Below are positions 721-17,774 of a DNA stretch of 21,684 nucleotides, in pieces; positions within the stretch are counted from its first letter, which is position 1; every line of letters begins with the position of its first letter. The stretch is from a virus: IMG/VR virus record IMGVR_UViG_3300045988_103300, positions 1 through 21,684 of that record, one strand, 5' to 3'. Position numbers and translations under genes: made by a program. The notes under the pieces were generated by a model that saw only the letters and a program-made list of their open reading frames with translations, did not search any database and was not told the origin of the DNA.

Positions 721-1047
721 TTAATCCAAGTATTTATAAACTATATCTATTAGTTTGGTAATCATATCTTTAATTAGAATCATACAATCCTTTATAACTG
801 GAGTCATAAATGCAATTAAAGCAATATATGCAATCATTAAGAAGCTTAATTGTCCAGTTACTAAGATATATAGTAAACTTGCCCACCAAGTGCAGCATAG
901 AGAACATCCAAATAAAGGTATAGACCAATCAGTATATTTAACTCCAGGATATAGTTTACTTCATACCCATCTATTTGCCTTGTCCATAGCTCCAGATAAA
1001 TCAATACAGAAGACAAGAATAATAGCTATAAAAAGTATGCTTAACAT
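721..1047 (-). CDS. Integral membrane protein, DUF1360-like, with in-frame TGA (108 aa)
   Basis: Not on the ORF track because of TGA at 961-963. ATG 1045-1047, TAA 721-723. Hand translation: MLSILFIAIILVFCIDLSGAMDKANRWV-W-SKLYPGVKYTDWSIPLFGCSLCCTWWASLLYILVTGQLSFLMIAYIALIAFMTPV... It has several hydrophobic helices and a PLFGC..C..W motif resembling DUF1360 membrane proteins. The plus-strand ORF 755..1069 is its antisense shadow. Confidence 0.6.
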
Positions 1048-1286
1048 AACCTCTCTCTTATTTGTTTAATAAATCTCTGAATAGTCGTATGACTAATTCC
1101 CAGAATCTTCCCAACTTCTCTATAACTTCGATATTCAGCATATAAGATAATTATAGTCTTATCTGCTCTATTTAATGCCTCTCATTTTGGATAAATTGAA
1201 AGTAATCTATCATCCATCTCTGTAAAGGTATCTATTTCAAAGTTATACTCAATTAATAAATCATCAATATTAATCTTCTGCTTCAT
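1041..1286 (-). CDS. Sigma-70 region-4-like HTH protein, with in-frame TGA (81 aa)
   Basis: Not on the ORF track because of TGA at 1182-1184. ATG 1284-1286, TAA 1041-1043. Hand translation: MKQKINIDDLLIEYNFEIDTFTEMDDRLLSIYPK-W-EALNRADKTIIILYAEYRSYREVGKILGISHTTIQRFIKQIRERLC. The segment L..ADKTIIILYAEYRSYREVGKILGISHTTIQRFI fits the ECF/sigma-70 region 4 (LuxR-like HTH) pattern. Confidence 0.55.
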
Positions 1287-1578
1287 TTAACCAATCCTCT
1301 AAATTATCCGTTTGTTGTTCTAATGGCTCTTTAAATATCTCATAGTACTTTTTATATTGGTAGTAGTATCTACTATTCTTTGAAAACCAATTATTCTTAA
1401 ATACTCTTGTAATCCAATACTTCAGCTCATTCTTACTATCTAATGACTGAAGCTTGGAATTAGATGTTTCCAGAAGTGCAATGCAGACCATTTGTGTGCA
1501 ATCGTCATCTGCACCAAATTTTTCTTTTAACTCCATAATAAACGGATAGTATTTCTCTATTATTTCATTGTTATTCAT
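1270..1578 (-). CDS. Sigma-70 region-2-like protein (102 aa)
   Basis: ATG 1576-1578, TAA 1270-1272. The segment DDDCTQMVCIALLE...ELKYWITRVFKNNWFSKNSR resembles ECF sigma region 2 (acidic-Q-x-hydrophobic ... W-hydrophobic-x-x-hydrophobic-x-x-N-x-x-x-x-x-x-R). It lies directly upstream of, and overlaps by 17 nt, the region-4-like ORF. Confidence 0.45.
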   Translation of the reverse strand: MNNNEIIEKYYPFIMELKEKFGADDDCTQMVCIALLETSNSKLQSLDSKNELKYWITRVFKNNWFSKNSRYYYQYKKYYEIFKEPLEQQTDNLEDWLNEAED

Positions 1579-2062
1579 ATTCCCAAATAAACCCTCCAGC
1601 TGTTTTTCGCTGACCTTTAAGAACTTTTACAATGTTTCTGGATTGTATATTAAGTCCCCGTTCAGCATCTATTGCGGAATCTCATCTCTTAATCAAACTT
1701 CCATCTAATGATAGCTGTCTAATTGCTTTCTTATGAGAAATTCCTACTTTAATATTATGACTGCCATAATTATTGTTATATTCATAAGTACAGTACTCTA
1801 AATTATCTAAGTTATTATTTAGCTTATTTTCATCCTTATGGTTAATACATAAGTCACTTTTACCTATGAAAACTTCTGCCACTAGTCTATGTATTAGATA
1901 TTTCTTTTGCCCAAACTGATTATATAAAGTAACATAATAATATCCACTATTTTGGAGTTGAGGTTTGATATTTTTCGGAACTGAGGTTCTAGTACTCCAG
2001 ACCGAACCGTCAGTTCCTATTAAATAGTTTTCATATCCAGGTATTGCCTTATATGTCGTCAT
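1571..2062 (-). CDS. HNH homing endonuclease with C-terminal HTH tail, in-frame TGA (163 aa)
   Basis: ORF-track 1682..2062 stops at TGA 1682-1684. Read-through continues 36 codons to TAA 1571-1573: ...LIKR-W-DSAIDAERGLNIQSRNIVKVLKGQRKTAGGFIWEYE. This is the typical DNA-binding tail of phage homing endonucleases (..RKTAGGF.W.Y). The N-terminus YKAIPGYENYLIGTDGSVWS is NUMOD4-like. HNH core: HRLVAEVF...INHKDENKLNNNLDNLEYCT..YN. Confidence 0.85.
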
Positions 2063-2486
2063 TTCTTATATAATTACTAAAAGTTGTGTCTATTTCTAAT
2101 TTAATTGCTTTCTTTAAAGATAACTCTGTTTTTAAAGAGTATTTATATTCTCCTCCAAAATCAGTTGTACTTCTTCCATATTTCATTGAATCTTTAATAA
2201 AAGCTCTTTTTACATCTTTATAAATATAAACTCCATCATCAAATATAATGACTAATATAGAGTTACATTTACTAAGTATATCAAACTTATCCCTGTTTAT
2301 AATTGTAGTTGGATATTTATCTGATTTAAATCTTCTCCTTTTAACTTCAATTATATAGTCTATATTATTCCAAGTAAATGTTCCATCATATCTGGAATAA
2401 TCGTCTTTACATCATTCTATTTCTATATTATATTTATCTTTAAATAGATTCTTTATAAAGACTAAACTTCTTATATCTGTTTTCAT
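2049..2486 (-). CDS. Possible PD-(D/E)xK-fold nuclease, with in-frame TGA (145 aa)
   Basis: Not on the ORF track because of TGA at 2412-2414. ATG 2484-2486 shares one base with the TAA of the upstream gene; TAA 2049-2051. Hand translation: MKTDIRSLVFIKNLFKDKYNIEIE-W-CKDDYSRYDGTFTWNNIDYIIEVKRRRFKSDKYPTTIINRDKFDILSKCNSILVIIFDDGVYIYKDVKRAFIKDSMKYGRSTTDFGGEYKYSLKTELSLKKAIKLEIDTTFSNYIRNDDI. The D...IEVK motif is compatible with a restriction-endonuclease-like fold. Confidence 0.4.
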
Positions 2487-2725
2487 TATCTTACATTATG
2501 AATTTTTAAGGTTACATCACAATACTGTTCATATAATTCAGATACTTCTGAACTTCCAGGATTATGCCACATTACAGAGTCTAATTTATGCTGGAGTTCT
2601 GCCTGTTCTAATCTAAGCTCAAATGTTTTAGTTTGGTAGTCTCCATAAGCATTATATACTCTAATACCAGCTATAATAAAGCTAAGTACTAATAATCCAG
2701 CTAATATTTTATTTATCTTTTTCAT
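2486..2725 (-). CDS. Small N-terminally membrane-anchored protein (79 aa)
   Basis: ORF-track 2486..2767 begins on TTG; the likely start is ATG 2723-2725 (MKKINKILAGLLVLSFIIAGIRVY...). One hydrophobic helix is followed by a helical soluble part. TAA 2486-2488. Confidence 0.5.
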   Translation of the reverse strand: MKKINKILAGLLVLSFIIAGIRVYNAYGDYQTKTFELRLEQAELQHKLDSVMWHNPGSSEVSELYEQYCDVTLKIHNVR

Positions 2726-2736
2726 AATTAAATATA

Positions 2737-2916
2737 TTAGAAAGAAATACCTAAACCAAAAAACCAAGAGGATTTCTTTACCTTTTCATTGGTTTCAATC
2801 TCCTTTAATGCCTCATTACATAATTCTTGAGCTTTCTCAATAGAACCATCTTCAGTAATCTTACCATCTAATATATCAAGAAAATATTCAAGTGCTTCAA
2901 TTTGTTTAGTTTTCAT
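2737..2916 (-). CDS. Small hypothetical protein (59 aa)
   Basis: Hand translation: MKTKQIEALEYFLDILDGKITEDGSIEKAQELCNEALKEIETNEKVKKSSWFFGLGISF, ATG 2914-2916, TAA 2737-2739. It is the first ORF downstream of the leftward promoter and is too short for the ORF track. Confidence 0.35.
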   Translation of the reverse strand: MKTKQIEALEYFLDILDGKITEDGSIEKAQELCNEALKEIETNEKVKKSSWFFGLGISF

Positions 2917-2962
2917 AATTTATAAAGTTTAATTGTTAATATTATGTCTTACTTTCATAGTA

Positions 2963-2994
2963 CAAATATACAACAAAAAATTCATATTTCCAAA
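2963..2994 (-). promoter_or_regulatory. Leftward Bacteroidota-type promoter candidate
   Basis: On the minus strand, TTTG (complement of 2991-2994), then 20 nt, then TATATTTG (complement of 2963-2970). This matches the Bacteroides consensus TTTG-N19-21-TAnnTTTG. It lies about 45 nt upstream of ATG 2916. Confidence 0.55.
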
Positions 2995-3052
2995 TATTTT
3001 ATGCATTTTTTCAAAAAAAATATTACTATTTGTATTTTTTAGTGCTAAAAAT

Positions 3053-3083
3053 TTTGTAGATTAAAAAATTATTCTTATATTTG
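3053..3083 (+). promoter_or_regulatory. Rightward Bacteroidota-type promoter candidate 1
   Basis: TTTG 3053-3056, 19 nt spacer, TATATTTG 3076-3083. Confidence 0.45.
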
Positions 3084-3132
3084 TGGTGTGATAATAAAAA
3101 TACAATTTTAAATAAAAATAATGCTTAAATTA

Positions 3133-3164
3133 TTTGGAGATTGAGAAAAATTGTTGTATATTTG
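3133..3164 (+). promoter_or_regulatory. Rightward Bacteroidota-type promoter candidate 2
   Basis: TTTG 3133-3136, 20 nt spacer, TATATTTG 3157-3164. The -7 region is identical over 20 nt to that of the leftward promoter. Confidence 0.5.
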
Positions 3165-3238
3165 TACTATCAAACTAAAACTACTTCCATATTGAAAATT
3201 GAGCTGGGATTAATTTCCAGTTTAATTTTAACCTTTAC

Positions 3239-3289
3239 TGTAACTTTTTTACTAATATTTTGTAGTAAGATAAATAAAAAAAGTTACAT
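3239..3289 (+). promoter_or_regulatory. Conserved 51-nt element, copy A (TGTAAC-N39-GTTACA)
   Basis: Sequence: tgtaacttttttactaatattttgtagtaagataaataaaaaaagttacat. It ends 33 nt upstream of the helicase-like ATG. 42 of 51 positions are identical, without gaps, to copy B at 21200-21250. The terminal arms are inverted repeats. Confidence 0.6.
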
Positions 3290-3322
3290 ATAAAATTTAT
3301 TAACTTATTAAAAATTACTATT

Positions 3323-5041
3323 ATGAAAACTTATTTAAATAATTTAATCAATGAATTACCTACTAACTGCTTATTTGACAAAGGTAAAGTAGGATGTGGT
3401 GGAACTTCAATGGCTTTAGAGTGTGATAAGCCTTATGTTATATGTGTTCCATTTGTAAGCTTAGTTGAGAATAAACTTGCTCAATATCCTAATGAAAGAC
3501 GTAAAGAGCCTATTTTTGGAGTTTATCAAGGTATTACTAAGACAGACATTGAAGCTTATGTATCTTCAGTTAAATGCCCTAAAATCATTGTTACTTATAA
3601 TTCTCTTTATAAAGTAATAGAAGCGGTAAATCCTAAAGATTATAGCCTATTAATTGATGAATATCATATACTATTTAATCAATATAGTCTTAGAAGAGAC
3701 GCAATTAAAGATGTATTAAAGACATATAGCTTATTTAAAGAATATACATTTATGACTGCTACTCCCTTAGAAGATGAATTTGTTTTAGATGAATTGTCTA
3801 AACTGCCATTAGTAAGACAAGAATGGGATGATGTTATCGAGACTAAAGTTCAGACTGTCAAATGCAAGAATGTAGAAGCTTCCACAATTAAGCTTATAAA
3901 TGGATTTTTAAGTGGGAATGTTGAAGGTAATGCTTATATATTTGTTAACTCTGTTGACTTTATAAAGAATCTTATTTTAAAGGCTAAACTTACAGCAGAT
4001 AACACAAGAGTAGTATATTCTAAGAATAATAGAACTAAACTGCCAATTCAGAATTCTTCAGTAAATGATGAACCTAAGAAGATTAATTTGTTGACTTCTA
4101 CTGTATTTGAAGGTTCTGATATTTATGATGAAAATGGAAGAATTATTGTAGTTAGTGATTCCTCTAAAGCTCAGACTCTTTTAGATATATCTACTTCAAT
4201 TCAACAGATTGCTGGTAGAATTAGAAATAGTAAATATTTAAATTGGATTACTCATCTTTATTCAGCCACAAGATATGCAGAGATAGATTATGATACATTT
4301 AAAAATAATACATTAAAGAATATTGAAGAAACAAAGATTGCAGTTGAATCATATAATCAGCTTCCAGAAGTAGCTCGTAAGAAGATTACAGACTTTACAA
4401 GTGACACATATATTCAAATTAATGAGGATTATACCTTTGAATTTGACCCAAATATGGCTAAAGTAGATATATTCAATTTTAAGGTTGCAAGAGGTTTATA
4501 CTCTGTAAGAGTTAATCTTACTAATGAATATCTAAAGAATGGCTTTATAAAGGTTGCTGAATGTGAAGATAAATCTATTAAGATAGACCTTGAAGCTCCT
4601 AGTAAGTCATTTCAGGAGCTTATTAAAGATGTAAGAGCTGAATGGGAAACTAAATTTAAAGTTGGAACTCCTATATTAAATGAAGCTCTAATTAAATATC
4701 CTTGGTTAAATGATGCAATTAATAAACTGGGATTTGAAAGAATGGCAACTTTGGGTTATTGCATTAAAGATATTAAAGAGGAGCTTGTTAAAATATCAGA
4801 TAAAAATATGCCAAATAAGGTTGCCAAATTACTTACAAGAGATATTCAGAATGGTATGTTCTACAATTTAGCTTTATTAAAGAATAAGATTGCTGATGTA
4901 TATAAGACTTTAGGTATAAAGAAAACTGCAAAGGCAACAGATATTGAACACTATTTTGAAGTTAGAAAATCAACTAAAACTGAAAAGGATGTTAGAAGCA
5001 AAGGATACATTATTATTAGACCAAGATTCATATTTAAATAG
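3323..5041 (+). CDS. SF2 (DExH-type) helicase-like ATPase (572 aa)
   Basis: ATG 3323, TAG 5039-5041. It has a P-loop-like GKVGCGGTS near the N-terminus, a Walker B/DExH box (LLIDEYH) and a motif III-like FMTATP. All 4 Trp codons are TGG. It is the only long plus-strand gene. Confidence 0.6.
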   Translation: MKTYLNNLINELPTNCLFDKGKVGCGGTSMALECDKPYVICVPFVSLVENKLAQYPNERRKEPIFGVYQGITKTDIEAYVSSVKCPKIIVTYNSLYKVIEAVNPKDYSLLIDEYHILFNQYSLRRDAIKDVLKTYSLFKEYTFMTATPLEDEFVLDELSKLPLVRQEWDDVIETKVQTVKCKNVEASTIKLINGFLSGNVEGNAYIFVNSVDFIKNLILKAKLTADNTRVVYSKNNRTKLPIQNSSVNDEPKKINLLTSTVFEGSDIYDENGRIIVVSDSSKAQTLLDISTSIQQIAGRIRNSKYLNWITHLYSATRYAEIDYDTFKNNTLKNIEETKIAVESYNQLPEVARKKITDFTSDTYIQINEDYTFEFDPNMAKVDIFNFKVARGLYSVRVNLTNEYLKNGFIKVAECEDKSIKIDLEAPSKSFQELIKDVRAEWETKFKVGTPILNEALIKYPWLNDAINKLGFERMATLGYCIKDIKEELVKISDKNMPNKVAKLLTRDIQNGMFYNLALLKNKIADVYKTLGIKKTAKATDIEHYFEVRKSTKTEKDVRSKGYIIIRPRFIFK

Positions 5042-5201
5042 AATTGCGGATATTAAAGAAACTCTTAAAAAGTCAGAAGATACTATTAAGGAGTTTGATA
5101 AGTGAATGAATGAATTTAAAGAGAATTCTAAGAAATTAGGAGATATTATAGATAGAGTATTAGCACAAAGAGATTTTACATTTATTTCAAAATTTGATTA
5201 A
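4989..5201 (+). CDS. Possible small coiled-coil protein (70 aa if TGA 5103-5105 is read as Trp)
   Basis: ATG 4989 overlaps the helicase 3' end in another frame. Translation: MLEAKDTLLLDQDSYLNRIADIKETLKKSEDTIKEFDK-W-MNEFKENSKKLGDIIDRVLAQRDFTFISKFD, TAA 5199-5201. Alternatively there are two short ORFs, since the TGA is immediately followed by ATG (tgaatgaatgaa). Ambiguous. Confidence 0.25.
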
Positions 5202-5203
5202 TT

Positions 5204-5338
5204 ATGGATGATTTTTTATTTAAAAAGCTTGAAGAACTAGAATATAGAATAGTTCAATTAGAGAACCAAAACAAAGGGTTAGTTTGGGAAGAAGTAGAAG
5301 AAAAACCAGAGATTCCTAACGCAACATATATTGACTAA
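5204..5338 (+). CDS. Small hypothetical protein (44 aa)
   Basis: MDDFLFKKLEELEYRIVQLENQNKGLVWEEVEEKPEIPNATYID, TAA 5336-5338. It is tightly packed with the flanking small ORFs. Confidence 0.3.
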   Translation: MDDFLFKKLEELEYRIVQLENQNKGLVWEEVEEKPEIPNATYID

Positions 5339-5339
5339 T

Positions 5340-5480
5340 ATGAAGTACTTTACATATAAATTATGCTTAAATGGAGTAAATTACGTTTATGTAATTCCCG
5401 AAAATAGTAAATTCTTAGTAGATTTACAAACTGGAGAATTAATACCTAAAGATGAGAAATTATTTGAGATAATGGAATAA
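5340..5480 (+). CDS. Small hypothetical protein (46 aa)
   Basis: MKYFTYKLCLNGVNYVYVIPENSKFLVDLQTGELIPKDEKLFEIME, TAA 5478-5480, directly followed by a strong terminator. Confidence 0.3.
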   Translation: MKYFTYKLCLNGVNYVYVIPENSKFLVDLQTGELIPKDEKLFEIME

Positions 5481-5483
5481 ACA

Positions 5484-5517
5484 AAAAGGAGGGTTATTTG
5501 CCCTCCTTTTCTTTTTT
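5484..5517. terminator. Bidirectional rho-independent terminator between convergent units
   Basis: Perfect 10-bp stem: aaaaggaggg (5484-5493), loop ttatttg, ccctcctttt (5501-5510). It is followed by a T-run on the plus strand and preceded by an A-run (a T-run on the minus strand). It sits between the plus-strand stop at 5480 and the minus-strand stop at 5519. Confidence 0.85.
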
Positions 5518-5518
5518 A

Positions 5519-6088
5519 TTAAACATATCTTCACTTGAATCCTTTAGCTGTATTTGCTAATCCACCACATACTCTACTAATAGCTCCTCTATCAGTTCCT
5601 ACAGATTTGGCTGCTTCTGTGCAACTTTCATACTCTTGAATAAAATTACCATCTAAATCATACTGAGCTACTTTACGACATCTTTGTTTGTTATGAGCAT
5701 CTACTTTATCTCTTCAAGATTCTGGGCAATTATGTTTCTTTCCCTTATTAGAATTAGACAGTTTCTTCTTTCATTCAGAATTAAATTTGACTCCGTAATT
5801 GCCTCCTTCTCCTCCAGGTTTCAAATTTAAACACATAGGATCAGTGTCCCATTTATCTCCAATTAGTTTGTATTCTAATTTAGATAATTCATCTGCATTA
5901 GTGCAAGTTGCCAAAATAATCTTTTGGTATGCATTAGGGAATCTTTTGTAATAATTAGTAATAATCCTTCCTGATCCTTTATATGGATCTTTATTTATGT
6001 CTTTACCTCTATAAATCCTTTTCCCAATATAATACTTGCCTCTTAATGTACCTGCAGTTAAAATTATTTTATAACAATAGTAAAACAT
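5519..6088 (-). CDS. GIY-YIG homing endonuclease with three in-frame TGAs (189 aa)
   Basis: ORF-track 5771..6088 (YCYKI...GKYYIGK...YKGSG GIY-YIG core) stops at TGA 5771-5773. Read-through gives ...KFNSE-W-KKKLSNSNKGKKHNCPES-W-RDKVDAHNKQRCRKVAQYDLDGNFIQEYESCTEAAKSVGTDRGAISRVCGGLANTAKGFK-W-RYV, ending TAA 5519-5521. The extension has NUMOD3-like basic repeats and the classic ..GF.W.Y tail. TGAs are at 5771, 5714 and 5531. Confidence 0.85.
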
Positions 6089-6701: not shown

Positions 6702-6702
6702 A

Positions 6703-7359
6703 TTATATTTTATTTAAAATTACACTTATCTGTATTCCAGCTCTTCTTAGATGTACTCAAGTATCATAAGGCATAGGTGTATCACAGAATGACAAACCTA
6801 AAATGCCAATATCTTTATCCTCAGTCTTTAAATAAAATACTGCTATTTCATTCACTCTGTTGGATTTAAATGCATAATATAATCTTGGATCATCTGCTTC
6901 TAAACTATCTATATTACCAAACCATCCATCATTCTTAGAAAACTCTATAATTGAAGTATAGTCAGATAACAGGAAATCTTTATAATGGCTACTTACAGAT
7001 CTTATTCCTGGTTTTACTTCCTCTGCATTCATTACTCCATAGGTAAATGGAAGTCCCCCTAATCCAGTAGTTCCATTATGATATTCAATAACCCAAGCTC
7101 TATCAGCATTTGTGCTTTGAAGCAATTCTTTAAGCTTATATTTAATCTTTAAAGTTGCTTCATTTCTTGCAATAGTTTTAGAATTGTGAGTTTGTTCAAT
7201 ATAGGTTACAACCTTATTATAAACAATAGAGGGATTAAGTGTAATAACCATTACATAGGATATAAATATTAATCCAATCCCTGCTTTAAATATCTTTAGT
7301 AATCCATATTTATCAACCCATTCTAATACTTTACCAAACCAATTTAATTTATTTTCCAT
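6703..7359 (-). CDS. Membrane-anchored protein of unknown function, in-frame TGA near C-terminus (218 aa)
   Basis: ORF-track 6757..7359 stops at TGA 6757-6759. Read-through adds -W-VHLRRAGIQISVILNKI up to TAA 6703-6705, one base before the holin ATG, which closes the gap. One N-terminal hydrophobic helix (AGIGLIFISYVMVITL). The extension has no family support; the argument is gene packing only. Confidence 0.5.
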
Positions 7360-7784
7360 TACATATCATCAGTGCAAGTACCCAGTGTGTTGTCAACTTG
7401 GAAATCAGCTCTAACAAACACTCCGCAGGTAATATCTTTGAACTTTTGATAGAATGGAGTATAAATTAAAGGATAAGCTATTTCAACTTCTGGATATAGG
7501 TTATTAAAACGATTAATTATATTTTGCAGTGCGAGCATACCTGCTGACTGTTCCTCCAATTGGTTGTTATCAGTCTCATCCCATCTTGATACGAAGTATA
7601 GGTTTAAAGAGTAAGTGATAGTATCTTCATCTACACTAAAAGTATTAGGTGTTATATAGAACACATTATACTCAATAGTTGGTAAGCTATTTAACTCATA
7701 AATATCTTTACTTCCTACAAAATTGATGTTTGGCTCTTCTAATGCACAAGCTTTTAAATTGCTAATTATCTCATAGTAGGTCAT
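7359..7784 (-). CDS. Hypothetical virion/head-completion-region protein (141 aa)
   Basis: ATG 7782-7784, TAA 7359-7361, which shares one base with the next ATG. No recognisable motif. Confidence 0.6.
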   Translation of the reverse strand: MTYYEIISNLKACALEEPNINFVGSKDIYELNSLPTIEYNVFYITPNTFSVDEDTITYSLNLYFVSRWDETDNNQLEEQSAGMLALQNIINRFNNLYPEVEIAYPLIYTPFYQKFKDITCGVFVRADFQVDNTLGTCTDDM

Positions 7785-7786
7785 AA

Positions 7787-8476
7787 TTACTTACTCTTTT
7801 TATTGTTACTTGAAGGAAAATCATAAGCTCTTTGAAGAGGCCCCTCTCCAGGTTTAATGCTCCATCCTTTACCTCTTGCTCCACCAAGCCAAATATTGCA
7901 AGATGAGCTAGAGTAAAGATTGGGAAACATATCCTTTAATGGCTTATATGTATAAAGCTCAGGGAATTCGTTATAATATGTAATTATAAAGTCCTGTAAA
8001 CGAGTCTTAAAGAAATCCGCCTTATCTCTATAATACTTCTTAATTTGATTTACTTGACTTGCTTCAGCAGCAATATCTTTCTCATCATCAGTTCTCATAA
8101 CTCCAAAATTACCAAGCTTATAAGATATAGGAATTACTATCTCGCTAAGTACTTGATAAAGTAAATAAGGCTGAACATAATAGTCTAATAGCTCTTTATA
8201 TCTGTAGTTATCAGAATCATCAATAGAATCACTTGGAAGTGGCTCAGGAGGTTCTATTGGATGAACTGGAGTATGAGGATCAATCCAATTAATACATTTC
8301 TTTTGTAATGCTTCCAATAGCTTAGTACCAATAGTTGACTGAAGTTCTACATCTTGGGCACTTGTGATGGCTGCTTGTAAATATTTACCCGATATATTGT
8401 TATCTAATGTAGAATTTGACTTTATATAGTCTTCTGAAATAAGCAGTACATTTCTATAGTTAAGTTGTTCCATCAT
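7787..8476 (-). CDS. Possible head-tail connector (gp6-like) protein (229 aa)
   Basis: The N-terminal pattern ISEDYIKSNSTLDNNISGKYLQAAITSAQDVELQSTIGTKLLEAL resembles the start of gp6-like head-tail connector/DNA-packaging proteins. It is located after the portal. Weak assignment. Confidence 0.35.
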   Translation of the reverse strand: MMEQLNYRNVLLISEDYIKSNSTLDNNISGKYLQAAITSAQDVELQSTIGTKLLEALQKKCINWIDPHTPVHPIEPPEPLPSDSIDDSDNYRYKELLDYYVQPYLLYQVLSEIVIPISYKLGNFGVMRTDDEKDIAAEASQVNQIKKYYRDKADFFKTRLQDFIITYYNEFPELYTYKPLKDMFPNLYSSSSCNIWLGGARGKGWSIKPGEGPLQRAYDFPSSNNKKSK

Positions 8477-9068
8477 AAATAAATTTATTGTTTTTATAAG
8501 GTCTATTTTCTTTTAAAGCTAAATATAATCCAGAACGTTCTCCATTAACTGATTTAACAGCTTCTTTCATTGAATTATATCTTGCAATAAAATTCCCATT
8601 CATATCAAATCTTAATATAGGCTTAACTCTAGTAATTCGTCCTTTGGAAGCATTTCCAATTTTAATAAGTGTTTCCAAAGTATAGATTCCTTTCTTTCCT
8701 TTATTCCAGGGTGTTTTACCTTTTTTAGAATTTGACATTTTTGCTCTACTCTCATTAGAAAAAGAATACCCGTATGTACCTTCTCCTCCTGATGTTATAT
8801 TGTAACCATTTTCAGGAGTATTTGTTTTATATTTATGTATCAATATCCTTTCTAATGTCTTAGCACAAGCTTCTGGTAAATTATCTTTAATTATGATATG
8901 TTCAAATCCATCTCAGCTATATTTTTGTATCGCTTTATAAAAGTAAGCTTGAGTAGAGTATCCATATCCATTTTTTCACCTAGCTTGCACACTTTGTCCA
9001 GTAATGCCAAAATATAGCTTATTGTTATACTTATTTATATGGCAATAAACAGTATAATTATTCAACAT
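8460..9068 (-). CDS. GIY-YIG homing endonuclease with two in-frame TGAs (202 aa)
   Basis: ORF-track 8460..8843 begins on TTG and lacks the catalytic domain. Extending upstream through TGAs at 8913-8915 and 8976-8978 to ATG 9066-9068 gives MLNNYTVYCHINKYNNKLYFGITGQSVQAR-W-KNGYGYSTQAYFYKAIQKYS-W-DGFEHIIIKDNLPEACAKTLERILIHKYKT...GYNITSGGEG. This is a complete GIY-YIG domain followed by NUMOD3-like basic repeats. TAA 8460-8462. Confidence 0.85.
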
Positions 9069-10149
9069 TTTGTTTGCTATCTTCTTGTCCATTTGGAGTT
9101 AAGCTAAAAGGAGTTATAGTTATTGAACCTTTCATTCCAAATATCTTATCAAATGTATCTACTATTTCGACCTGAATTGGTCTAACTACTGTACGATTAT
9201 AAAGTTTAAAAGCTTCATTAAATTCTTGTTCGTTGAATCCACTTGAGTAGTTAAGGCCAAAAAGTACACTATTAGCTCTAAATGCGCAGAATATCTGTTC
9301 TCTTGTCCTATCAGATAAAGCACTATATTTCTCATCAAAATCATCAGAGTCTAAACGCTCAATAGTAGTCTTATTTGTTTCATCATCATTATATGAAATA
9401 AGAACTCTACCAGCATTTTGAAATCCTGAGAATTTCTCATTAATATTCATCTCAATCTCTTCTTTAACTTCGTCTGTAGGCTGTCCATTATTAAAGTTAA
9501 TGATAAGATTGCCCATAAATCCGTTATGAAGAGAATTTAGATGAAACTCATTAATATTCTTCTCAGTTTCGCAAGATAGGATAGCTGCACCATAAACAGG
9601 GACTGGATATACTTTTCTTGTTATATAGCCCTTATTATAAACAACACTTGTAGGATTATCATCTGAATAATTAAATTTTGGATATTTGATAGCTTTAATA
9701 GACCAAGCAGACCAATCATCGGCATAATAGAATACTTCATTCTTTTCATCAGAACGAATCTTCATAAAGTCAAGATGATATATTTCTGAAACTCTACCTA
9801 CCATATCTCTAATTATTTGTAAAGCATATCCTCCAAAAATCATCTTATCTTTAGATACTTTACGCATAATATCCATAATAGTCTCACCTTTCTTATTTAC
9901 AGTTACTTCAAATCCTGGTGCATTACATACAACATCATTACCAACAATAAAGTCAGCAGTCCCATTAATGATAGATTGAAGAGTAGCTACATTTAAGTAT
10001 AAATCCCATAGATATAATGGATAGCGATTATCTTCACCCCAAGAAATCCAATCAGAACCCCTTTTTCTCGATTCTACAGGAAGTACTAAATTTGACACTA
10101 CAACAGGATCAATTGCACTTAATTGTACTTTTGTTTTATTTTCGCTCAT
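9058..10149 (-). CDS. Portal protein (363 aa)
   Basis: ORF-track 9058..10206 starts on TTG; the likely start is ATG 10147-10149 (MSENKTKVQ...). Portal-family features: ..WISWGEDNRYPLYLWDLYLNVATLQSIINGTADFIVG.., ..MIFGGYALQII.., ..FLGLNYSSGFNEQEF.. All 5 Trp codons are TGG. Confidence 0.75.
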   Translation of the reverse strand: MSENKTKVQLSAIDPVVVSNLVLPVESRKRGSDWISWGEDNRYPLYLWDLYLNVATLQSIINGTADFIVGNDVVCNAPGFEVTVNKKGETIMDIMRKVSKDKMIFGGYALQIIRDMVGRVSEIYHLDFMKIRSDEKNEVFYYADDWSAWSIKAIKYPKFNYSDDNPTSVVYNKGYITRKVYPVPVYGAAILSCETEKNINEFHLNSLHNGFMGNLIINFNNGQPTDEVKEEIEMNINEKFSGFQNAGRVLISYNDDETNKTTIERLDSDDFDEKYSALSDRTREQIFCAFRANSVLFGLNYSSGFNEQEFNEAFKLYNRTVVRPIQVEIVDTFDKIFGMKGSITITPFSLTPNGQEDSKQNVE

Positions 10150-10528: not shown

Positions 10529-10600
10529 ATTTTGCAATAGTTTTACATTAATTTACATATCTTTTTCTTAAAATATAAAAGACTATGCATATGTATTAAT

Positions 10601-10629: not shown

Positions 10630-10635
10630 AATTTA

Positions 10636-11607
10636 CTATGCAGAAGCTAATGTTCAGTTCTTAGATGTAGCTAAAGCTTTTTGTTCTTCTGTAAGAGCAT
10701 TATAAACTGCAGAATTAAATGTAATAGTTTGTGTAGAAATTCCAGTTAAATCTGACACTGCTTCTAGAACATTATCAACTGAACTAGACGTTAATGAAGG
10801 AAGATTAGCTAAAGTAAATGACTTACTTGTAACTACACCTCCGAATTCTGTTAATTCAGTTAGCCAGTATGAACTTCCAAATGTATAGCCAAAAGCTGTG
10901 GAGTTTAATGAATTATTAGGAGATATAGTTATTTTGCCTAAAGATTTTAATTTTTTACAATATGTAAACATCTGATTTGTTTGACCAGTACAGTTTGGAG
11001 CGTAAATATCTGGAATGGTTTCAATTGATCCACAATAATTGAAAATGCCAGAAAGAGAAGTTGCTATAGAAAAATCCATATTTGGTAAAGTAAGCAAACT
11101 ACTACATTTACTAAAAGTTTGAAAATATTGAGATAATTTTAAATTTGCATCTATTTCAACTAAATGTTGGCAGTTATAGAAAAGTTGACTACCTTGAGTA
11201 TGGGTACTATTTAATAATATTATTTTATGTATTGCATTACTGCTAGAAGTAGTATAAAACATATTATTCATATTTTTCCCTTGGCAATCAAATGTGAATT
11301 CATCATTTTCAGACCATTCACATCCGTAGAAAAAATCAGCATAAGAAGATTTATTTAGTATAAAATAATCCTCCAATTTTAATTCCCCACCATCTCTAAA
11401 TTGATGCATATTAGAATATCCTAATGATAATGGAATAATACTTAAATCAATTTTACCTCCACCTCCAGAAATCTGTCCTATCTTATCTGCATAGCTTCTA
11501 AAGGTATCTGAATCCGATACAGCAACACCTTTAGCTACAATAGCATCTTTAATGGCACTCTTAGTACCTTCAAGATACGTTAATTTATCAGAAATTGTAT
11601 TTGCCAT
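10636..11607 (-). CDS. BspA-type leucine-rich-repeat tail/receptor-binding protein, in-frame TGA (323 aa)
   Basis: ORF-track 10654..11607 stops at TGA 10654-10656. Read-through gives ...EEQKALATSKN-W-TLASA, TAG 10636-10638. The N-terminus (LTYLEGTKSAIKDAIVAKGVAVSDSDTFRSYADKIGQI) is typical of phage LRR fibre proteins. Repeats of the F..C..L type are present (FYGCEW.., FYNCQHLVEI, FSKCSSLLTL, FNYCGSIETI, FTYCKKLKSL). Confidence 0.7.
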
Positions 11608-11608
11608 A

Positions 11609-12130
11609 TTAGATATATTTAAATTTTACCCCTTTATAAGTGTCTGTTCTTCCTTTAAGACAATCTATAACTCTACTATGAGTATACCCATCTATTGATG
11701 TTTCAATTGCATTTTTATATGTTTTAACTAGTAAATCATTAATAAATAGCCCTACAGGTTTACTAATTTTATCAATACATCTATTTATTCTAGTTCCATA
11801 TGTATTATTATACTTTGCATCACATCATTCTAAATTTTCTACCCTATTATCTGTCTTATTTTCATTTATATGGTTAACATATGGTAGATTGTCAGGATTT
11901 GGAATAAATGCTTCTGCTACTAGTCTGTGAACTTTAATAGCTTTAGGTTTATCTAAGCCAGATACTAGAATTACATAATTATAGCCATATTTATCTATAT
12001 GCTGTTTTAGCTTTTTATGTATTTGTTTTCTGGTTCTTCCAATAGAATCTTTAAAAGTCAATGGGTTACTATATACATCTCCTGTAGAAGATACACTATA
12101 GTTAGGATAATTTGTTAATACTCTATTCAT
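11609..12130 (-). CDS. HNH homing endonuclease, in-frame TGA in the HNH core (173 aa)
   Basis: Likely start ATG 12128-12130 ([26 protein letters not shown]4-like). ORF-track 11825..12208 stops at TGA 11825-11827. Read-through gives ...[92 protein letters not shown] 11609-11611. NLEW is the conserved HNH_3 motif. Confidence 0.85.
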
Positions 12131-12737: not shown

Positions 12738-12744
12738 AGTTTTA

Positions 12745-12966
12745 TTATTTAAGAGATTCTTCAATAGCCTTCTCAGCTTGTTCTTTATAAATCCTGTCTT
12801 GTTCCAGGGATATTTCTCTTAGATGAGTTAAATCGCAATCTAATGGACAAATACACTCTTTAAATGAGTTATACCCTTTAATGTCCATTTCGTCTTTATA
12901 GTTAGTCAGAAGCATACTATCTTCAGGCTTAACTACTTGATACTTTTCTTTAATTTCAACTTTCAT
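12745..12966 (-). CDS. Small protein, paralogue of 16039..16272 (73 aa)
   Basis: ATG 12964-12966, TAA 12745-12747. It shares ..C(I)CPL.(A/C)DL...(R).I..EQ...Y.. with the 77-aa protein at 16039..16272 and occupies the same position (between an LRR gene and a fibre gene). Confidence 0.55.
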   Translation of the reverse strand: MKVEIKEKYQVVKPEDSMLLTNYKDEMDIKGYNSFKECICPLDCDLTHLREISLEQDRIYKEQAEKAIEESLK

Positions 12967-12967
12967 A

Positions 12968-13810
12968 TTAGTATGTTACTGACCAGCCTTTACTGGTGAT
13001 TTGTGATTTTTGTTCCTCTGTTAATGAATTATATACAGTTTGATGAAATTTGATTATTAAATTTCTATCTGTAGTATATAATCCATCTATAACATTATCT
13101 ACTGACTGACTCGTTAATACTGGTAATTTTGATAACTTTAATATTTCTATGTTAGTGCTTTTCCCTATATTAGTAAACCCTCCTAAATCTGTCAAATAAG
13201 AAAAAGGCCCAGAAGCAAATATATTTTGGTAATCCTGTCACTTTTCTGCATTATATCTAGGAACAGATTCTAAAGCTATACATCCTCTAAACATATTTTC
13301 AACACTTATAGCATTATCCATATTTATATTAGGAGCATTTTTTAAAGATGAGCATCCGTCAAACATATTGTAAAAAGCTATAGCTGTTGTGCCATTAATA
13401 TCTGGTACAGATACTAATGATGAGCAGTTTTGAAATGTTTGCCCAAGATGTACAAAATTTGATAGTATATTGGGAACTATTTTTAAATTTGTACATCCAT
13501 AAAATAAACCATTTGCTGCTCCTTTATTTGCGTTTGGAAAATAGGTCATATCGGATACATCCTCAATAGAAGTGCTTTCGAATATACTATTATTACCTTT
13601 ATACCAACTATTTACTGTATTTGCATCACAATCAGTAATTTCAGTCTGTCCTGGAAATATATTATCTATAACTAATTGCTTAAATTCAGTACTTTTAAAT
13701 ACTATAGGGGAGCAAATATTACTAGGCCAGACTTTGGTACTGCCAACATAAATAGCAGTACCTTGTCTGTCACCTACATAAAATGTTTTTAAATCATCTC
13801 TAATATTCAT
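12968..13810 (-). CDS. BspA-type LRR tail/receptor-binding protein, fusion of two track ORFs across TGA (280 aa)
   Basis: ORF-track 13238..13810 ends at TGA 13238-13240. ORF-track 12968..13195 is in the same frame and begins on TTG. The joining sequence is ...RYNAEK-W-QDYQNIFASGPFSYLTDLGGF... The fused protein has the same architecture as the 323-aa paralogue: LRR units FYGCTNLKIV, FQNCSSLVSV, FDGCSSLKNA, FRGCIALESV, then a C-terminal LSKLPVLTSQSVDNVIDGL...LTEEQKSQITSKGW module. Confidence 0.75.
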
Positions 13811-13811
13811 A

Positions 13812-16037
13812 TTATTCTACAATTAAATATTGTGTATTAGGATCTTTAGTTGATAAACCATCATACTCTGATTGAGTTAGAACAGTAATAGTATTTATTT
13901 GAGGTTGGGTTCCAGTTCCAGCTTCAATATAGTTTCCAGCAGGCTGAATACCTAAATCTGATAAACTCTTATTGCCAGATAACTCAACAGAATTAATCTG
14001 AGGTTTATTTGTTAACTGAGTATAATCGGTAGCCCCTCCACCTCCAGATATTTCAAGATTACCTTCTCCTAAAATACTTTCACCATTAATAGTCTTTATA
14101 TTAGTACCAGAAACTAGTTGCTCTTGATAACTATGATAACTAGTATCTGCTGATACTCCAGTTGGAGTAATAGTAGTTTGAACTACAGTATGATTAGCTG
14201 TAGTACTTTCAAAATGGAAAGTAGCTTGAATATTTTCTCCTGAAACAAAACATACTTCTGGAGCTGCTATATCACCATAACCTAGAATATTTACATAATA
14301 AAGCTCAAATGGTGTTTTATTAGCTATAGCATTCTTAACAGCAGCGAAATCTCCAGAAAGATGAGTAGTGGAATTTATAAATAGAAATGGAATATTAGAA
14401 CCACTTTCAATTTCTATATTACCTTCTCCAAGTAAAGACTGACTATTGATTGTTTTGATATTAGTTCCACTTACAAGCAAATCTTGCTTAGTAGCCATCT
14501 CTTTATCAAGAGAATCAATCTTATCTCCATCTTCTTCTTGTTTTGTTTTAATAATTGATATATCTGAAGTATTAGTTGCTACTTGAGTAGATAAAGATTC
14601 TACTACAGAAGAATCTGCTTTACCTGCAAGTTCTATTTTTGTTGCATAATCTCCTACAGGCTGTTTAGTAGCAAGCTGCTCATCAACATAAGTCTTATCT
14701 GCTTTACCTGCTAAATCTCCAGAAACCTCTGTTTCAGTTACAAAGTTAGAATCATTAGTAAGCTCACTAACTTTAGTTGGAATATCACTCTTTAAAGCAT
14801 AATCTCCTTTATCTTGTTTTGCATCAATCTTACTTTGTAAAGAAGATCTTAGAGTCTCAATTTCCTCATTAACTGAATCGTTAGTTGCATAATCACCAAC
14901 TGGTTGGTATCCAGATAAATCTACAGATAACTGAGTCTTATCTCCATTAAAAGCTAATGGAGCTTGAGGAGCAAATACTCCTTGTTTTTCCTCAAGTTTG
15001 GCATCTACTTCTTCTTTAGTATATCCTTTATTAGTAAGATCAACCTCAGTAACTTTAACAGTCATATTACCATTATTTACTAAGATTGCATTAATAACTA
15101 CTAATACACCATTATCTTGGAAATAATAGCCATATAAATCAATAGTTTCGGGATGCTCAATAGTTGCAACAGGAATAACTATAATATCACCTTTATATGT
15201 AATCTGGCAGAATAAATAGAAGTCCAGATTAGTTCTAATAAAGTCATAGATATGTTTCTGTCTTACAGGATCATTCTCATCTAAATTAAGTAAGAAATGA
15301 TTCTCAAAAGCAGAGATTACATTATCTATAATAGATATATTCTTTCCTGCTGTAAGCGTTTCCTGTTTTGAAGCTATCTCTTTATTAATAGCTGTATTTA
15401 AAGCATCAATTTCAGCTTTGGTATATTTATCTGCTAATTGTGCATATAGAGGACCATTAACAATACCAGCTTGGTTAGTCTCTGTATTATATATTGGAAG
15501 TTCAACTGCTTCTCCAGTTTGATTACCAAATACAGGAGCTAAAGTAACTTTAGATGGGACTGATTGAATATTAATGGCAGGTACGATTGAAGCTGCTCCA
15601 GATAATTCAGTTCCATTTAAAGATGGTTTGTTACGAATAGTATTATAATCTGCAGAAATAGTATTCTCTTCAATTACTATACCATCACCTTGAACAAGTG
15701 TATTTTGCTTTCCAGCAGTGGCTTCAGTAATCTCTGCAGTTACCTCTTCTTTAGTTGGATAGTCAGCTAGTTTCTCAGTAATCTGATTATCAACTCCTTC
15801 AACTGACGGAATTCCAAGTTCATCAGAAGTCATACTTCCATTTAACTCAACTCCATTAATTTCAGGTTTATTTTGAATATCAAAATAACTGTTTGTTCCT
15901 AACTGAGAACCATCCATAACCTTAACTTCATCATCCTTGTCAATAACAATAACTTTAGTCACATTTGACTTATCTATCGTTTCAACTTCAAGGACATTAA
16001 GATAAGGAAGAATTGTCTTTTCAGTTTCGTTTGCCAT
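13812..16037 (-). CDS. Long tail fibre protein (741 aa)
   Basis: ATG 16035-16037, TAA 13812-13814. Recurrent fibre motifs: NKPxINGxELxG (three times: IQNKPEINGVELNGSMTSDELGI, IRNKPSLNGTELSG, LTNKPQINSVELSGNKSLSDLGI) and LVSGTNIKTIN(S/G)xS(L/I)LGEGN(I/L)EI (twice). Central Ala/Lys/Asp-rich repeats are present (GDYATK.ELAGKAD). By my reading it contains no Trp. Confidence 0.75.
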   Translation of the reverse strand: MANETEKTILPYLNVLEVETIDKSNVTKVIVIDKDDEVKVMDGSQLGTNSYFDIQNKPEINGVELNGSMTSDELGIPSVEGVDNQITEKLADYPTKEEVTAEITEATAGKQNTLVQGDGIVIEENTISADYNTIRNKPSLNGTELSGAASIVPAINIQSVPSKVTLAPVFGNQTGEAVELPIYNTETNQAGIVNGPLYAQLADKYTKAEIDALNTAINKEIASKQETLTAGKNISIIDNVISAFENHFLLNLDENDPVRQKHIYDFIRTNLDFYLFCQITYKGDIIVIPVATIEHPETIDLYGYYFQDNGVLVVINAILVNNGNMTVKVTEVDLTNKGYTKEEVDAKLEEKQGVFAPQAPLAFNGDKTQLSVDLSGYQPVGDYATNDSVNEEIETLRSSLQSKIDAKQDKGDYALKSDIPTKVSELTNDSNFVTETEVSGDLAGKADKTYVDEQLATKQPVGDYATKIELAGKADSSVVESLSTQVATNTSDISIIKTKQEEDGDKIDSLDKEMATKQDLLVSGTNIKTINSQSLLGEGNIEIESGSNIPFLFINSTTHLSGDFAAVKNAIANKTPFELYYVNILGYGDIAAPEVCFVSGENIQATFHFESTTANHTVVQTTITPTGVSADTSYHSYQEQLVSGTNIKTINGESILGEGNLEISGGGGATDYTQLTNKPQINSVELSGNKSLSDLGIQPAGNYIEAGTGTQPQINTITVLTQSEYDGLSTKDPNTQYLIVE

Positions 16038-16038
16038 A

Positions 16039-16272
16039 TTATTCTATATGTTTAGGTTTTAAACTCATCTCTTTAAGTTCAAGGTATTCTTTATGCTGTT
16101 CCTCTGTAATTACCCTATAGACAGATAAATCTGCATTTAAAGGGCAGTACATTAGTGTTGAGGCTGTATAAAACTTGATATTATCTCCATCAGTATATTT
16201 AGTAACATAATATCCTTTATCAGTATATACCTTGATAAAAACGTCTGTTTGTGTTATATGTAAATGTTCCAT
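16039..16272 (-). CDS. Small protein, paralogue of 12745..12966 (77 aa)
   Basis: ATG 16270-16272 shares one base with the TAA of the 500-aa LRR gene. TAA 16039-16041. The motif ..MYCPLNADLSVYRVITEEQHKEY.. matches ..CICPLDCDLTHLREISLEQDRIY.. of the 73-aa protein. Confidence 0.55.
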   Translation of the reverse strand: MEHLHITQTDVFIKVYTDKGYYVTKYTDGDNIKFYTASTLMYCPLNADLSVYRVITEEQHKEYLELKEMSLKPKHIE

Positions 16273-17774
16273 TATGCAAGAATCCAGTTTTTATTAGTAG
16301 CTATTGCTTTCTGTTCATCTGCTAGTTTAGATAAATGAGACTCTCCTAATACTAATGTATATTGAGTATCTCCAGTTCTATCTTTAAGTGCATCTAAAAT
16401 AGATACTAATGAGTCTATAGTTAGAGCTTCAAGACCTAAACTAAAATCAAGATAATCAGCATCTAAAGTTCCAGTTAAAGTAATAGTAGTAAGATTTGGG
16501 CAATCACTAAAAATAGCTCCTCCCATAGTTAATCCAGAAAAGTTGGTAGTTACTGTTGTTAAACTTTGGCAACTTCCAAACATTCCTCCTGCAGATTGTA
16601 CTGAAGAAAGGTCTATATTCCAAGAACTTAAAGTAGTATTTTGGAACATACCATCTGCCTCAATTAGTGCAGGTAACTCTATATTCCAATTACCAATAGA
16701 AGTATTCCAGAACATCATTTTTCCATTAGATAAAACTGGCAACGAATAACCCCAATCTGTTCAACCTACTCTTAAACATTGACTAAACATTTCTTCTGCA
16801 TTAACTAATCTACTTGTATCAAGTATAGGATTTTCTAATAGACCACAATTAGAAAACATACCTCTTGCTTCAACTAATATAGCATTTAATGTTATAGACT
16901 TTAATTTATTACAGTTAGCAAACATATAATCGCCATTAGTCATTTTAGGTGTACTTGCAGTAAAAGAAGTTAAACCAGTAAATCCAAACATATTATTTCC
17001 AGATGTTAATTCTGGCATATCTATATTGAACGAGGTTAACGCACTATCTCCATTAAACATTCCAGCTCCATTCTGTAAATTAGGAAGCTCCTTAGTAAAG
17101 GATGTTAACTGAGGACAACTTTGTAATATTCCTTCTCCATTAGTTACATTAGTAAAATCGAAGCCTTCAGGAACTTCAGTAAACTCACTACCTTGTAGTT
17201 TAATTTTATTTGCTGCTACGTCAATACTTCCTCCAGTTGGCACATTAACAGTTACATCAATAAACTCCATATAATCATATCCATCTGCAGGATGAATCAT
17301 TGTAGTTCCATTCTCTGTAATAGTAACTTCTCTATGCTCCTCAATTGGAATCTCTACATCTACTTCAATACTTGATAAACCTTGATAGCCAGCATCAGGT
17401 TTAACTTCAGTCATTGATAGGTTTTTATCTATTGTTATATGTTTCTCTTGTAAAGTAGGAGTTGGTACTGGAACATTTATTTGTGCAGAAACCTTCTCCA
17501 TAACATCATAATCTGGATCAGGTAAAATATCTATTAATCCATTAGATGTAATTGCAATCTCTTTAGTAGATTGTACTGTGGGAACAACAACATCAACAGA
17601 TACATTTACTTTCGACATACCATCATAACCCTCATCTGGAGTTACAACGAACTCAGCATTCTGAGTATATTCTACAGATTTCTCCTGTAATTTACATTCT
17701 TGAGCAGCTAAAGCTTCAATATCTCTTGAAGTTGTATTCTTTGCTACTTCTGGTGTTGTATATTTAATAGCCAT
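16272..17774 (-). CDS. BspA-type LRR tail/receptor-binding protein, fusion of two track ORFs across TGA (500 aa)
   Basis: ORF-track 16761..17774 ends at TGA 16761-16763. ORF-track 16272..16742 is in the same frame and begins on TTG. Junction: ...MFSQCLRVG-W-TDWGYSLPVLSNGKMMFWNT..., in mid-LRR array. The N-terminus has four ~38-aa tandem repeats. There are LRR units on both sides of the TGA (MFANCNKLKSITL, MFSNCGLLENPIL | MFGSCQSLTTVT, IFSDCPNLTTITL) and a C-terminal ..LADEQKAIATNKNWILA module. Confidence 0.8.

Follow-up and report, generated by a model that had tools for sequence, protein, structure and literature searches.

TGA as a tryptophan codon in a compact tailed phage with a probable standard-code Bacteroidota host

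What does TGA encode in a phage genome whose genes, under the standard code, are repeatedly interrupted by it? The question is raised by a 21,684-nucleotide (nt) stretch of viral DNA (IMG/VR record IMGVR_UViG_3300045988_103300; "the window" here means this whole stretch), 21.7 kb that make up about two-thirds of the circular ~32.4-kb genome of a tailed phage, with a GC content of 30% and with nearly all coding on the minus strand. A first-pass annotation, made from the nucleotide sequence alone, proposed that TGA is read as Trp throughout. Taken together, our analyses show that this is a phage using translation table 4 (code 4, in which TGA is Trp and TAA and TAG are stops) and make it probable that this code is specific to the phage and that the host belongs to the Bacteroidota and uses the standard code (code 11); decoding may involve interference with release factor 2 (RF2). 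As the annotation recognized, phage stop-codon recoding is an established phenomenon (Borges et al., 10.1101/2021.08.26.457843; Cook et al., PMC11210395); alternatively coded gut phages have already been described, this phage is a further example, and a single instance is therefore not itself a discovery.

All 16 positions at which in-frame TGAs had been placed are TCA on the plus strand and TGA on the minus strand, where each is an in-frame codon of a table-4 open reading frame (ORF); they fall, as claimed, in exactly 12 minus-strand genes (Table 1). Across the 33 gene frames of the window, with 6862 sense codons, there are 16 TGA and 60 TGG codons in frame and no TAA or TAG, compared with off-frame densities per codon of 6.0% for TAA, 2.7% for TAG, and 3.5% for TGA. 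Terminal codons are TAA in 28 genes and TAG in five, and the assertion that no gene ends in TGA stands. Could the TGAs nonetheless be real stops, so that the proteins are truncated or split, whether through pseudogene formation, assembly errors, or selenocysteine sites? Some public gene calls in relatives (contigs L003 to L005 among the fetched loci, which we designate by L numbers) are indeed broken up in the way that calling with code 11 would produce; however, independently assembled contigs from different samples have TGAs at the same places, and the frames stay open beyond them for up to 162 codons without TAA or TAG, with a joint chance probability of ~1e-36. We regard this explanation as extremely improbable, and the domain alignments described below also speak against it.

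The layout of the genes gives a similar picture, with some qualifications. Under code 11, the distance from a TGA to the next gene start is 55 to 499 nt, close to the 100 to 450 nt estimated at first. Tight junctions after read-through, which had been described for all of these genes, are present in nine of the 12 (from a 17-nt overlap to a 1-nt gap) and not in the other three: gaps of 22 nt and ~100 nt follow genes 721–1047 and 10636–11607, respectively, and 5519–6088 is a last gene that is followed by a terminator. When genes are re-called with table 4, the summed length of ORFs of ≥100 amino acids (aa) grows from 5889 to 6693 aa for the window and, for contig L002, from 5078 to 7388 aa, and standard-code annotation truncates or splits 12 of the 33 window genes, the number originally given, and affects 17 of 37 genome-wide. 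Some public gene calls on these contigs are already at table-4 lengths (500, 280, 323, 210, 150, and 189 aa). Two further TGAs, at 7366 and 7369, were rejected; they are in frame only if the gene at 6703 begins with a TTG at 7377, and we prefer the ATG at 7359 because it matches the 218-aa calls in relatives. A small plus-strand ORF at 4989–5201, which overlaps the 3′ end of the helicase gene and lies within the TGA-free plus-strand module, has a TGA at 5103 with an ATG immediately after it. This could be either a 17th sense TGA, giving the 70-aa product called in L007 and L008, or the genome's one real TGA stop, leaving ORFs of 38 and 31 aa.

To avoid bias, TGAs were masked as X before every search, and the expectation that protein families would align across them was borne out: HNH_3, LRR_5, and DUF285 alignments all cross TGAs, and NUMOD domains lie downstream of TGAs in three homing endonucleases. 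In the HNH endonuclease 11609–12130, HNH_3 spans the TGA (residue 128 of a 199-aa model), which aligns with the W of "NLRW" in I-HmuI (PDB 1U3E). The second HNH endonuclease (1571–2062) aligns with I-HmuI over residues 4–162, with Tyr at the TGA column and an I-HmuI NUMOD-like domain at residues 128–161, and NUMOD1 in 5519–6088 occupies residues 139–171, downstream of two TGAs. In the 500-aa tail protein with BspA-type leucine-rich repeats (LRR), the TGA is spanned by both LRR_5 (259–365) and DUF285 (283–409); the 162 open codons after it have a chance probability of ~4e-7. The 81-aa protein has HTH_50 and Sigma70_r4_2 matches from residue 36 onward, and its frame offers no start codon past the TGA. 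Read-through in 12968–13810 links the LRR part to a C-terminal module common to two paralogues, and the L007 call has the full 280 aa; orthologues of 2049–2486 are likewise called as 145 aa in relatives, the TGA at 961 is conserved in five relatives, and the L008 orthologue of 6703–7359 has TGAs at four positions.

The identity of the amino acid is indicated by the columns in which TGAs fall. The first-pass annotation had assigned several of them to family-invariant Trp positions; this holds for 6151 in the endolysin, where 24 of 24 homologues have W at column 130, and proved too strong for 8976 and 8913 in the GIY-YIG endonuclease (W in 22/25 and 21/25 homologues, respectively) and for 5531, where homologues have W or F within a C-terminal motif G(F/Y)x(W/F)xY. 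A sequence search of the PDB found nothing for the GIY-YIG protein, and database homologues were used instead; its NUMOD3 domain (residues 108–134) is downstream of both TGAs. Column 115 of the endolysin (6196) is F, Y, or W, and the invariant H132, the last zinc-ligand His, is downstream of both TGAs; catalytic residues beyond the TGAs are a further difficulty for true termination. The 6151 Trp is TGG in the endolysin homologue on L015, a 150-kb, 51% GC, Bacteroidales-like contig, and the codon at 10654 is TGA in nine close relatives and TGG in three, with paralogues ending in ...KNW or ...KGW.

The same picture emerges from codon comparisons over all orthologue pairs of the fetched loci. Codons opposite TGA are TGA (2250), TGG (609), TAT (104), and TAC (43), such that the commonest different codon is TGG, followed by Tyr codons, and TGG itself has the same spectrum. 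Because domains cross the TGAs and the columns are Trp or aromatic, we conclude, from these alignments, that TGA is read as Trp and not as Gly, selenocysteine, or stop. A Gly assignment (code 25) has a precedent in phages of Absconditabacteria and Gracilibacteria, which exist in human-associated samples (Borges et al., 10.1101/2021.08.26.457843). Gly at these columns had been named as an outcome that would overturn the Trp assignment; the homologues have W, F, or Y there and in no case G, and no Gly codon is among the 15 commonest codons opposite TGA in the fetched loci, so code 25 has a negligible probability. Selenocysteine fares no better, as the TGA columns align with Trp and not with Cys or Sec.

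Table 1. Features of the window, with coordinates on the 21,684-nt stretch.
Feature	Coordinates	Strand	Sense TGA	Remarks
Membrane protein, 108 aa	721..1047	-	961 (codon 29)	79 open codons after TGA
Helix-turn-helix (HTH) / sigma-70 region-4-like protein, 81 aa	1041..1286	-	1182 (codon 35)	
HNH homing endonuclease, 163 aa	1571..2062	-	1682 (codon 127)	
145-aa protein	2049..2486	-	2412 (codon 25)	120 open codons after TGA, P ~2e-5
Divergent promoter region	2963..3164	.		Three Bacteroidota-type promoters: 2963-2994 (-), 3053-3083 (+), 3133-3164 (+)
Superfamily 2 (SF2) helicase, 572 aa	3323..5041	+		Only large divergent gene; 0 TGA, 4 TGG
Bidirectional intrinsic terminator	5481..5511	.		AAAAGGAGGG-CAAATAA-CCCTCCTTTTT, perfect; directly after stop of 5519-6088
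GIY-like / NUMOD1 homing endonuclease, 189 aa	5519..6088	-	5771, 5714, 5531	
Peptidase_M15_3 endolysin, 150 aa	6088..6540	-	6196, 6151	
218-aa protein	6703..7359	-	6757 (codon 201)	
GIY-YIG / NUMOD3 homing endonuclease, 210 aa	8460..9092	-	8976, 8913	
BspA-type LRR tail protein, 323 aa	10636..11607	-	10654 (codon 318)	
HNH homing endonuclease, 173 aa from ATG 12130	11609..12130	-	11825	
LRR tail protein, 280 aa	12968..13810	-	13238 (codon 191)	89 open codons after TGA
BspA-LRR / DUF285 tail protein, 500 aa	16272..17774	-	16761 (codon 338)	

How far does the recoding extend beyond the window? Window proteins were placed by exact-protein look-ups on 29- to 33-kb contigs from many metagenome samples, whose names look like those of human gut cohorts; the 102-aa protein alone is indexed in 268 blocks of the collection, and the phage is present in hundreds of samples. 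The circle was closed with L008 and L002, which overlap at both ends to give ~32.4 kb, and L007, a 32,322-bp contig, is the same genome at 99.99% identity. Outside the window, ~10.6 kb encode the terminase, proteins of 206, 162, 726, and 1144 aa, and most of the 919-aa tape measure protein. This 10.6 kb contributes 21 more sense TGAs, eight in the 1144-aa protein, five each in the 726-aa protein and the tape measure, two in the 162-aa protein, and one in the terminase, and all of these genes terminate in TAA or TAG. Genome-wide there are 37 TGA and 87 TGG codons, with TGA making up 30% of Trp codons and at least one in 17 of 37 genes. Among the carriers are genes for the lysin, the terminase, the tape measure, the tail/LRR proteins, and four of the homing endonucleases; the genes for the major capsid protein, scaffold, portal, and helicase have none. 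The 741-aa tail protein (Phage_tail_C; 13812–16037, minus strand) has no Trp codon of either kind, where ~8 are expected at the genome average, and its L002 orthologue has one TGA and no TGG.

Is the code that of the phage or of its host? A standard-code, walled member of the Bacteroidota appears to be a quite probable host, judging from independent but indirect signals of gene regulation and homology, and because such a host uses the standard code, the code difference would belong to the phage. The Bacteroidota sigma-A promoter consensus TTTG-N17-23-TAnnTTTG (PMC12632263) matches six times in the window against 1.57 expected, and none of 100 shuffles reaches six; three of the six matches lie in a single divergent gap, one facing the minus-strand operon and two facing the plus-strand gene. 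Shine-Dalgarno cores precede only two of 32 genes, against a background of 12%. The closest long-contig homologue of the lysin (51% identity) lies beside type VI secretion system (T6SS), Mfa-fimbrillin, and HU-HIG genes, and a helicase homologue with 45% identity is on the chromosome of Hymenobacter sp. J193. A capsid-protein scan of species-representative genomes yielded only two phage contigs, each 48% identical, of which L014 had been binned with Bacteroidaceae. The lysin homologue at 3001–3489 of L015 immediately follows the genes for T6SS tube, VgrG, and PAAR proteins, and because of this position we read it as probably a T6SS peptidoglycan-targeting effector related to phage endolysins.

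The alternative is a host that itself reads UGA as Trp, either Mollicutes-like or from an undescribed code-4 gut lineage, so that the phage has its host's native code and requires no switch. This would account for the lack of a tRNA, release factor, or synthetase in the genome and for the presence of TGA in nearly half of the genes, regulators included; moreover, Pfam DUF285 is named after Mycoplasma, and 22 of 27 cultured-phage genomes predicted to use table 4 infect Mycoplasma or Spiroplasma (Cook et al., PMC11210395). Like those phages, the window phage has TGA = Trp, and they need no phage suppressor tRNA. It differs from them in its peptidoglycan lysin, its Bacteroidota-type promoters, and its use of TGA as a minority Trp codon. 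To our knowledge, Mollicutes are the only free-living bacteria that use code 4; they are wall-less, a peptidoglycan peptidase is useless against them, and low-GC Mollicutes mostly use TGA for Trp. The lysin, an M15 peptidase acting on peptidoglycan, therefore argues against a Mollicutes host, as do the Bacteroidota-type promoters together with the absence of Shine-Dalgarno sites and the homologues in Bacteroidota, and the fact that, in a genome of 30% GC, no more than 30% of Trp codons are TGA. Close relatives, furthermore, use code 11 or code 15, and neither megablast of the whole window nor tblastn of the capsid protein found a match among 50,697 deposited phage records. We consider a native code-4 host unlikely.

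These relatives place the recoding within a single phage family. TGA is read as Trp in the window, in L001 to L012, and in L017 and L018, whose helicases are 70% and 54% identical to that of the window, respectively. L013, with a capsid protein 48% identical and 46% GC, has the standard code with TGA stops; L014, also with 48% capsid protein identity and with 30% GC, reads through TAG (eight TAGs in each of two large genes) and uses TGA as a stop. L019, whose helicase is 48% identical, has 25.7% GC and neither in-frame TGAs nor TGA stops. Four coding states are thus found in one phage family: TGA as a stop, TAG read-through, TGA unused, and TGA as Trp. The helicase is TGA-free in four lineages (the window, L017, L018, and L019).

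How, then, would a standard-code cell read UGA as Trp? No phage-encoded code-change device, which is typical although not obligatory (a suppressor tRNA, release factor 1 [RF1], or a tryptophanyl-tRNA synthetase [TrpRS]), is present. The search for a tRNA with anticodon UCA that the first-pass annotation suggested was negative for the whole genome, a result that does not refute the recoding: neither ARAGORN nor Rfam, at the gathering threshold or at E ≤ 5, finds any tRNA on the closed ~32.4-kb genome, and protein domain screens found no release factor, aminoacyl-tRNA synthetase, or tRNA-modifying domain in any protein. Two candidates from permissive ARAGORN searches were rejected. The first, c[27-99] with a "tca" reading, is a poor cloverleaf and lies inside the coding ORF 5–454, small-terminase-like, which overlaps the terminase start; the second (5434–5514), which also has a weak Rfam sraA match, is the bidirectional intrinsic terminator. 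ORF 5–454 (minus strand) reads like a small terminase subunit, with "...SQSTAARYIGEAY..." resembling an HTH; at its end it overlaps with the beginning of the large terminase gene (ATG at ~21 of the window), and it is uncalled in public gene sets of relatives, where a 345-nt gap is found at the corresponding place.

We tentatively rank first, among the ways of decoding, interference with RF2 combined with the use of host tRNA-Trp; second and more doubtful is a tRNA that acts in trans or escapes detection, and a native code-4 host comes last, as unlikely. Under RF2 interference, host RNA polymerase would start at the divergent Bacteroidota-type promoters, the helicase would need no recoding, and a small phage protein may weaken host RF2, after which host tRNA-Trp(CCA) would read UGA, with moderate inefficiency. 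Such inefficiency would explain why high-copy proteins have no TGA and low-copy ones have five to eight, and why a T is avoided after sense TGAs. Decoding appears to be costly because high-copy proteins avoid TGA and low-copy proteins tolerate five to eight; avoidance of a following T is weak evidence for the same cost (T follows 11% of sense TGAs, compared with 22–26% for TGG and for all codons, and it follows 22 of 37 real stops). Full-length lysin, terminase and packaging proteins, tape measure, and tail proteins would be possible only once UGA is decoded; virion completion and lysis would therefore depend on changed termination at UGA, and UGA decoding would gate late functions and lysis.

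The same recoding could instead depend on a dedicated UGA suppressor tRNA that is absent from the genome or too aberrant to be detected. The host strain, a resident prophage, or a co-infecting phage might provide it, or the phage itself might make a non-canonical RNA that does the same. Suppressor tRNAs are the sole code-change device repeatedly seen in recoded phages, some are suspected to go undetected (Borges et al., 10.1101/2021.08.26.457843), and five to eight TGAs per protein would be easier to decode with a cognate tRNA. On the other hand, the ARAGORN and Rfam searches find none on the closed genome, promoters and the terminator occupy the few real gaps between genes, and supply in trans would be a risky dependence for a phage found in hundreds of samples. 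We accordingly regard a suppressor tRNA as possible and give it somewhat less credence than RF2 interference.

Several points weigh against the overall interpretation, that of a phage-specific code decoded through RF2 in a Bacteroidota host. No candidate for an RF2-interfering protein was identified, and proteins with eight TGAs need at least ~50–90% decoding per codon, which is much for near-cognate reading. The +4 bias of sense TGAs comes from 37 codons only, with an estimated P of ~0.04. The two bins of metagenome-assembled genomes that contain relatives disagree, one being "Azospirillum sp. CAG:239" and the other, with L014, Bacteroidaceae, and they were of no use for naming the host. The sigma-region-4-like gene and further small genes near the minus-strand promoter contain TGAs, and because these promoter-proximal genes carry the codon, no clean early/late partition of it is evident. 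Lastly, proteomic validation has been reported for code 15 alone (Peters et al., PMC9523058; Cook et al., PMC11210395).

The phage has much in common with recoded phages described previously. Ivanova et al. reportedly described stop-codon-recoded phages with TGA reassigned to Trp in 2014. With the TGA-to-Trp gut phages it shares in-frame TGAs at Trp positions, the abandonment of TGA as a stop, low GC (30%), an apparent standard-code host, recoded lysin and structural genes, and relatives with codes 11, 15, and 4; here, unlike in those phages, TGA is also found in small genes near the operon start. Most TGA-to-Trp phages (65–85%) likewise have no detectable Sup-TCA tRNA: a detectable TGA suppressor tRNA was reported in only 35% of code-4 phages (Borges et al., 10.1101/2021.08.26.457843), and suppressor tRNAs in 15% of table-4 phages in a study that assigned table 4 to 46 gut viral operational taxonomic units (0.08%; Cook et al., PMC11210395). 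At ~32.4 kb, the genome is far smaller than those of the TGA-recoded clades crAss, Jade, Sapphire, and Agate of Borges et al., with means of ~150–210 kb, and it lacks the "code-change module" (tRNA, RF1, and TrpRS) of Jade.

Small recoded clades of 22–34 kb, some of them mixing codes 11, 15, and 4, are also known, namely Garnet (34 ± 5 kb; Prevotella prophages), Amethyst (34 ± 6 kb), and Topaz (22 ± 3 kb) (Borges et al., 10.1101/2021.08.26.457843). The window phage resembles them in genome size (~32 kb), gut origin, and mixed codes within the clade, and resembles Garnet in its probable Bacteroidota host. The described examples of Garnet and Topaz, however, are TAG-recoded prophages with an integrase, and no integrase was found in this phage; for Garnet and Amethyst only size and habitat match. 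With the code 15 crAss-like and Lak phages (TAG to Gln), whose code has been validated by metaproteomics (Peters et al. 2022, PMC9523058), it shares the Bacteroidota association (for this phage a probable one), a reassigned stop codon, and proposed late-gene gating, and its relative L014 uses TAG read-through as they do. They differ in codon and amino acid and in genome size, which is 3- to 17-fold greater in the crAss-like and Lak phages, roughly half of which have a Sup-CTA tRNA. Stop-codon depletion in low-GC genomes has been proposed to precede reassignment (Borges et al., 10.1101/2021.08.26.457843), and L019, without TGA stops, fits this "stop depletion first" route.

In the window as a whole, protein family searches identified a phage late region with a head maturation protease, a scaffold-like protein, the major capsid protein, the portal, a DUF6712 protein, the 741-aa tail protein, and the Peptidase_M15_3 lysin, together with three BspA-type LRR/DUF285 tail proteins and five homing endonucleases. 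The helicase has the SF2 motifs GxGGT, DEYH, TAT, and QxxGRxxR. A PDB sequence search found nothing for it, and a fold search was used instead; its AlphaFold model (mean confidence score pLDDT 81) gives Foldseek matches to Mfd, RecQ, DEAD-box helicases, and UvsW. The terminator ends the long minus-strand operon where it converges with the plus-strand helicase module. An extracytoplasmic function (ECF)-type sigma factor is apparently split into two overlapping minus-strand ORFs within 1041–1578: the 102-aa ORF 1270–1578 matches sigma-70/ECF region 2 (TIGR02937, E 3e-5), and the 81-aa ORF 1041–1286 has its own GAGG and ATG and matches Sigma70_r4_2 and HTH_50. The two overlap by 17 nt in different frames, an arrangement kept in relatives, and could represent either a split sigma factor or a frameshift.

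The three BspA-LRR/DUF285 proteins (10636–11607, 12968–13810, and 16272–17774) have a common C-terminal module ending in ...EEQK..(S/T/N)K(N/G)W, and they are the most divergent regions between relatives that are otherwise 92–99% identical; this divergence suggests a role as swappable receptor-binding proteins. The homing endonucleases, all on the minus strand (1571–2062, 5519–6088, 8460–9092, 11609–12130, and 19944–20555), comprise two HNH and three GIY-type enzymes, and their five genes hold seven of the 16 TGAs. The 19944–20555 gene is missing from L001 to L006, and L009 and L010 have no GIY-YIG gene after the portal gene; comparison of these contigs indicates active presence/absence polymorphism of homing endonucleases among relatives.

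What the recoding means is in the first place practical: code-11 annotation damages, among others, the lysin, the terminase, the tape measure, and the receptor-binding proteins, and because these genes are truncated or split under the standard code, predictions of function and host range would be wrong. The phage is also a compact and abundant example, with ~40 genes, a presence in many samples, and none of the known code-change genes, which makes it a convenient system for UGA decoding in tRNA-less recoded phages and for the evolution of code change; relatives in three coding states and the "TGA-free" intermediate add to its value. It is a rather doubtful proposition that a complete Bacteroidota phage of only ~32 kb, with no tRNA, release factor, or synthetase of its own, makes a standard-code cell read UGA as Trp with the efficiency needed for proteins containing five to eight UGAs. 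If true, the code would be switched by protein alone or by reprogramming of a host tRNA, for example through an inhibitor of RF2 or a modifier of tRNA-Trp, and the factor would be among the few small, uncharacterized, TGA-free ORFs at 2737–2916, 2486–2767, and 366–698 and on the plus strand at 4989–5470.

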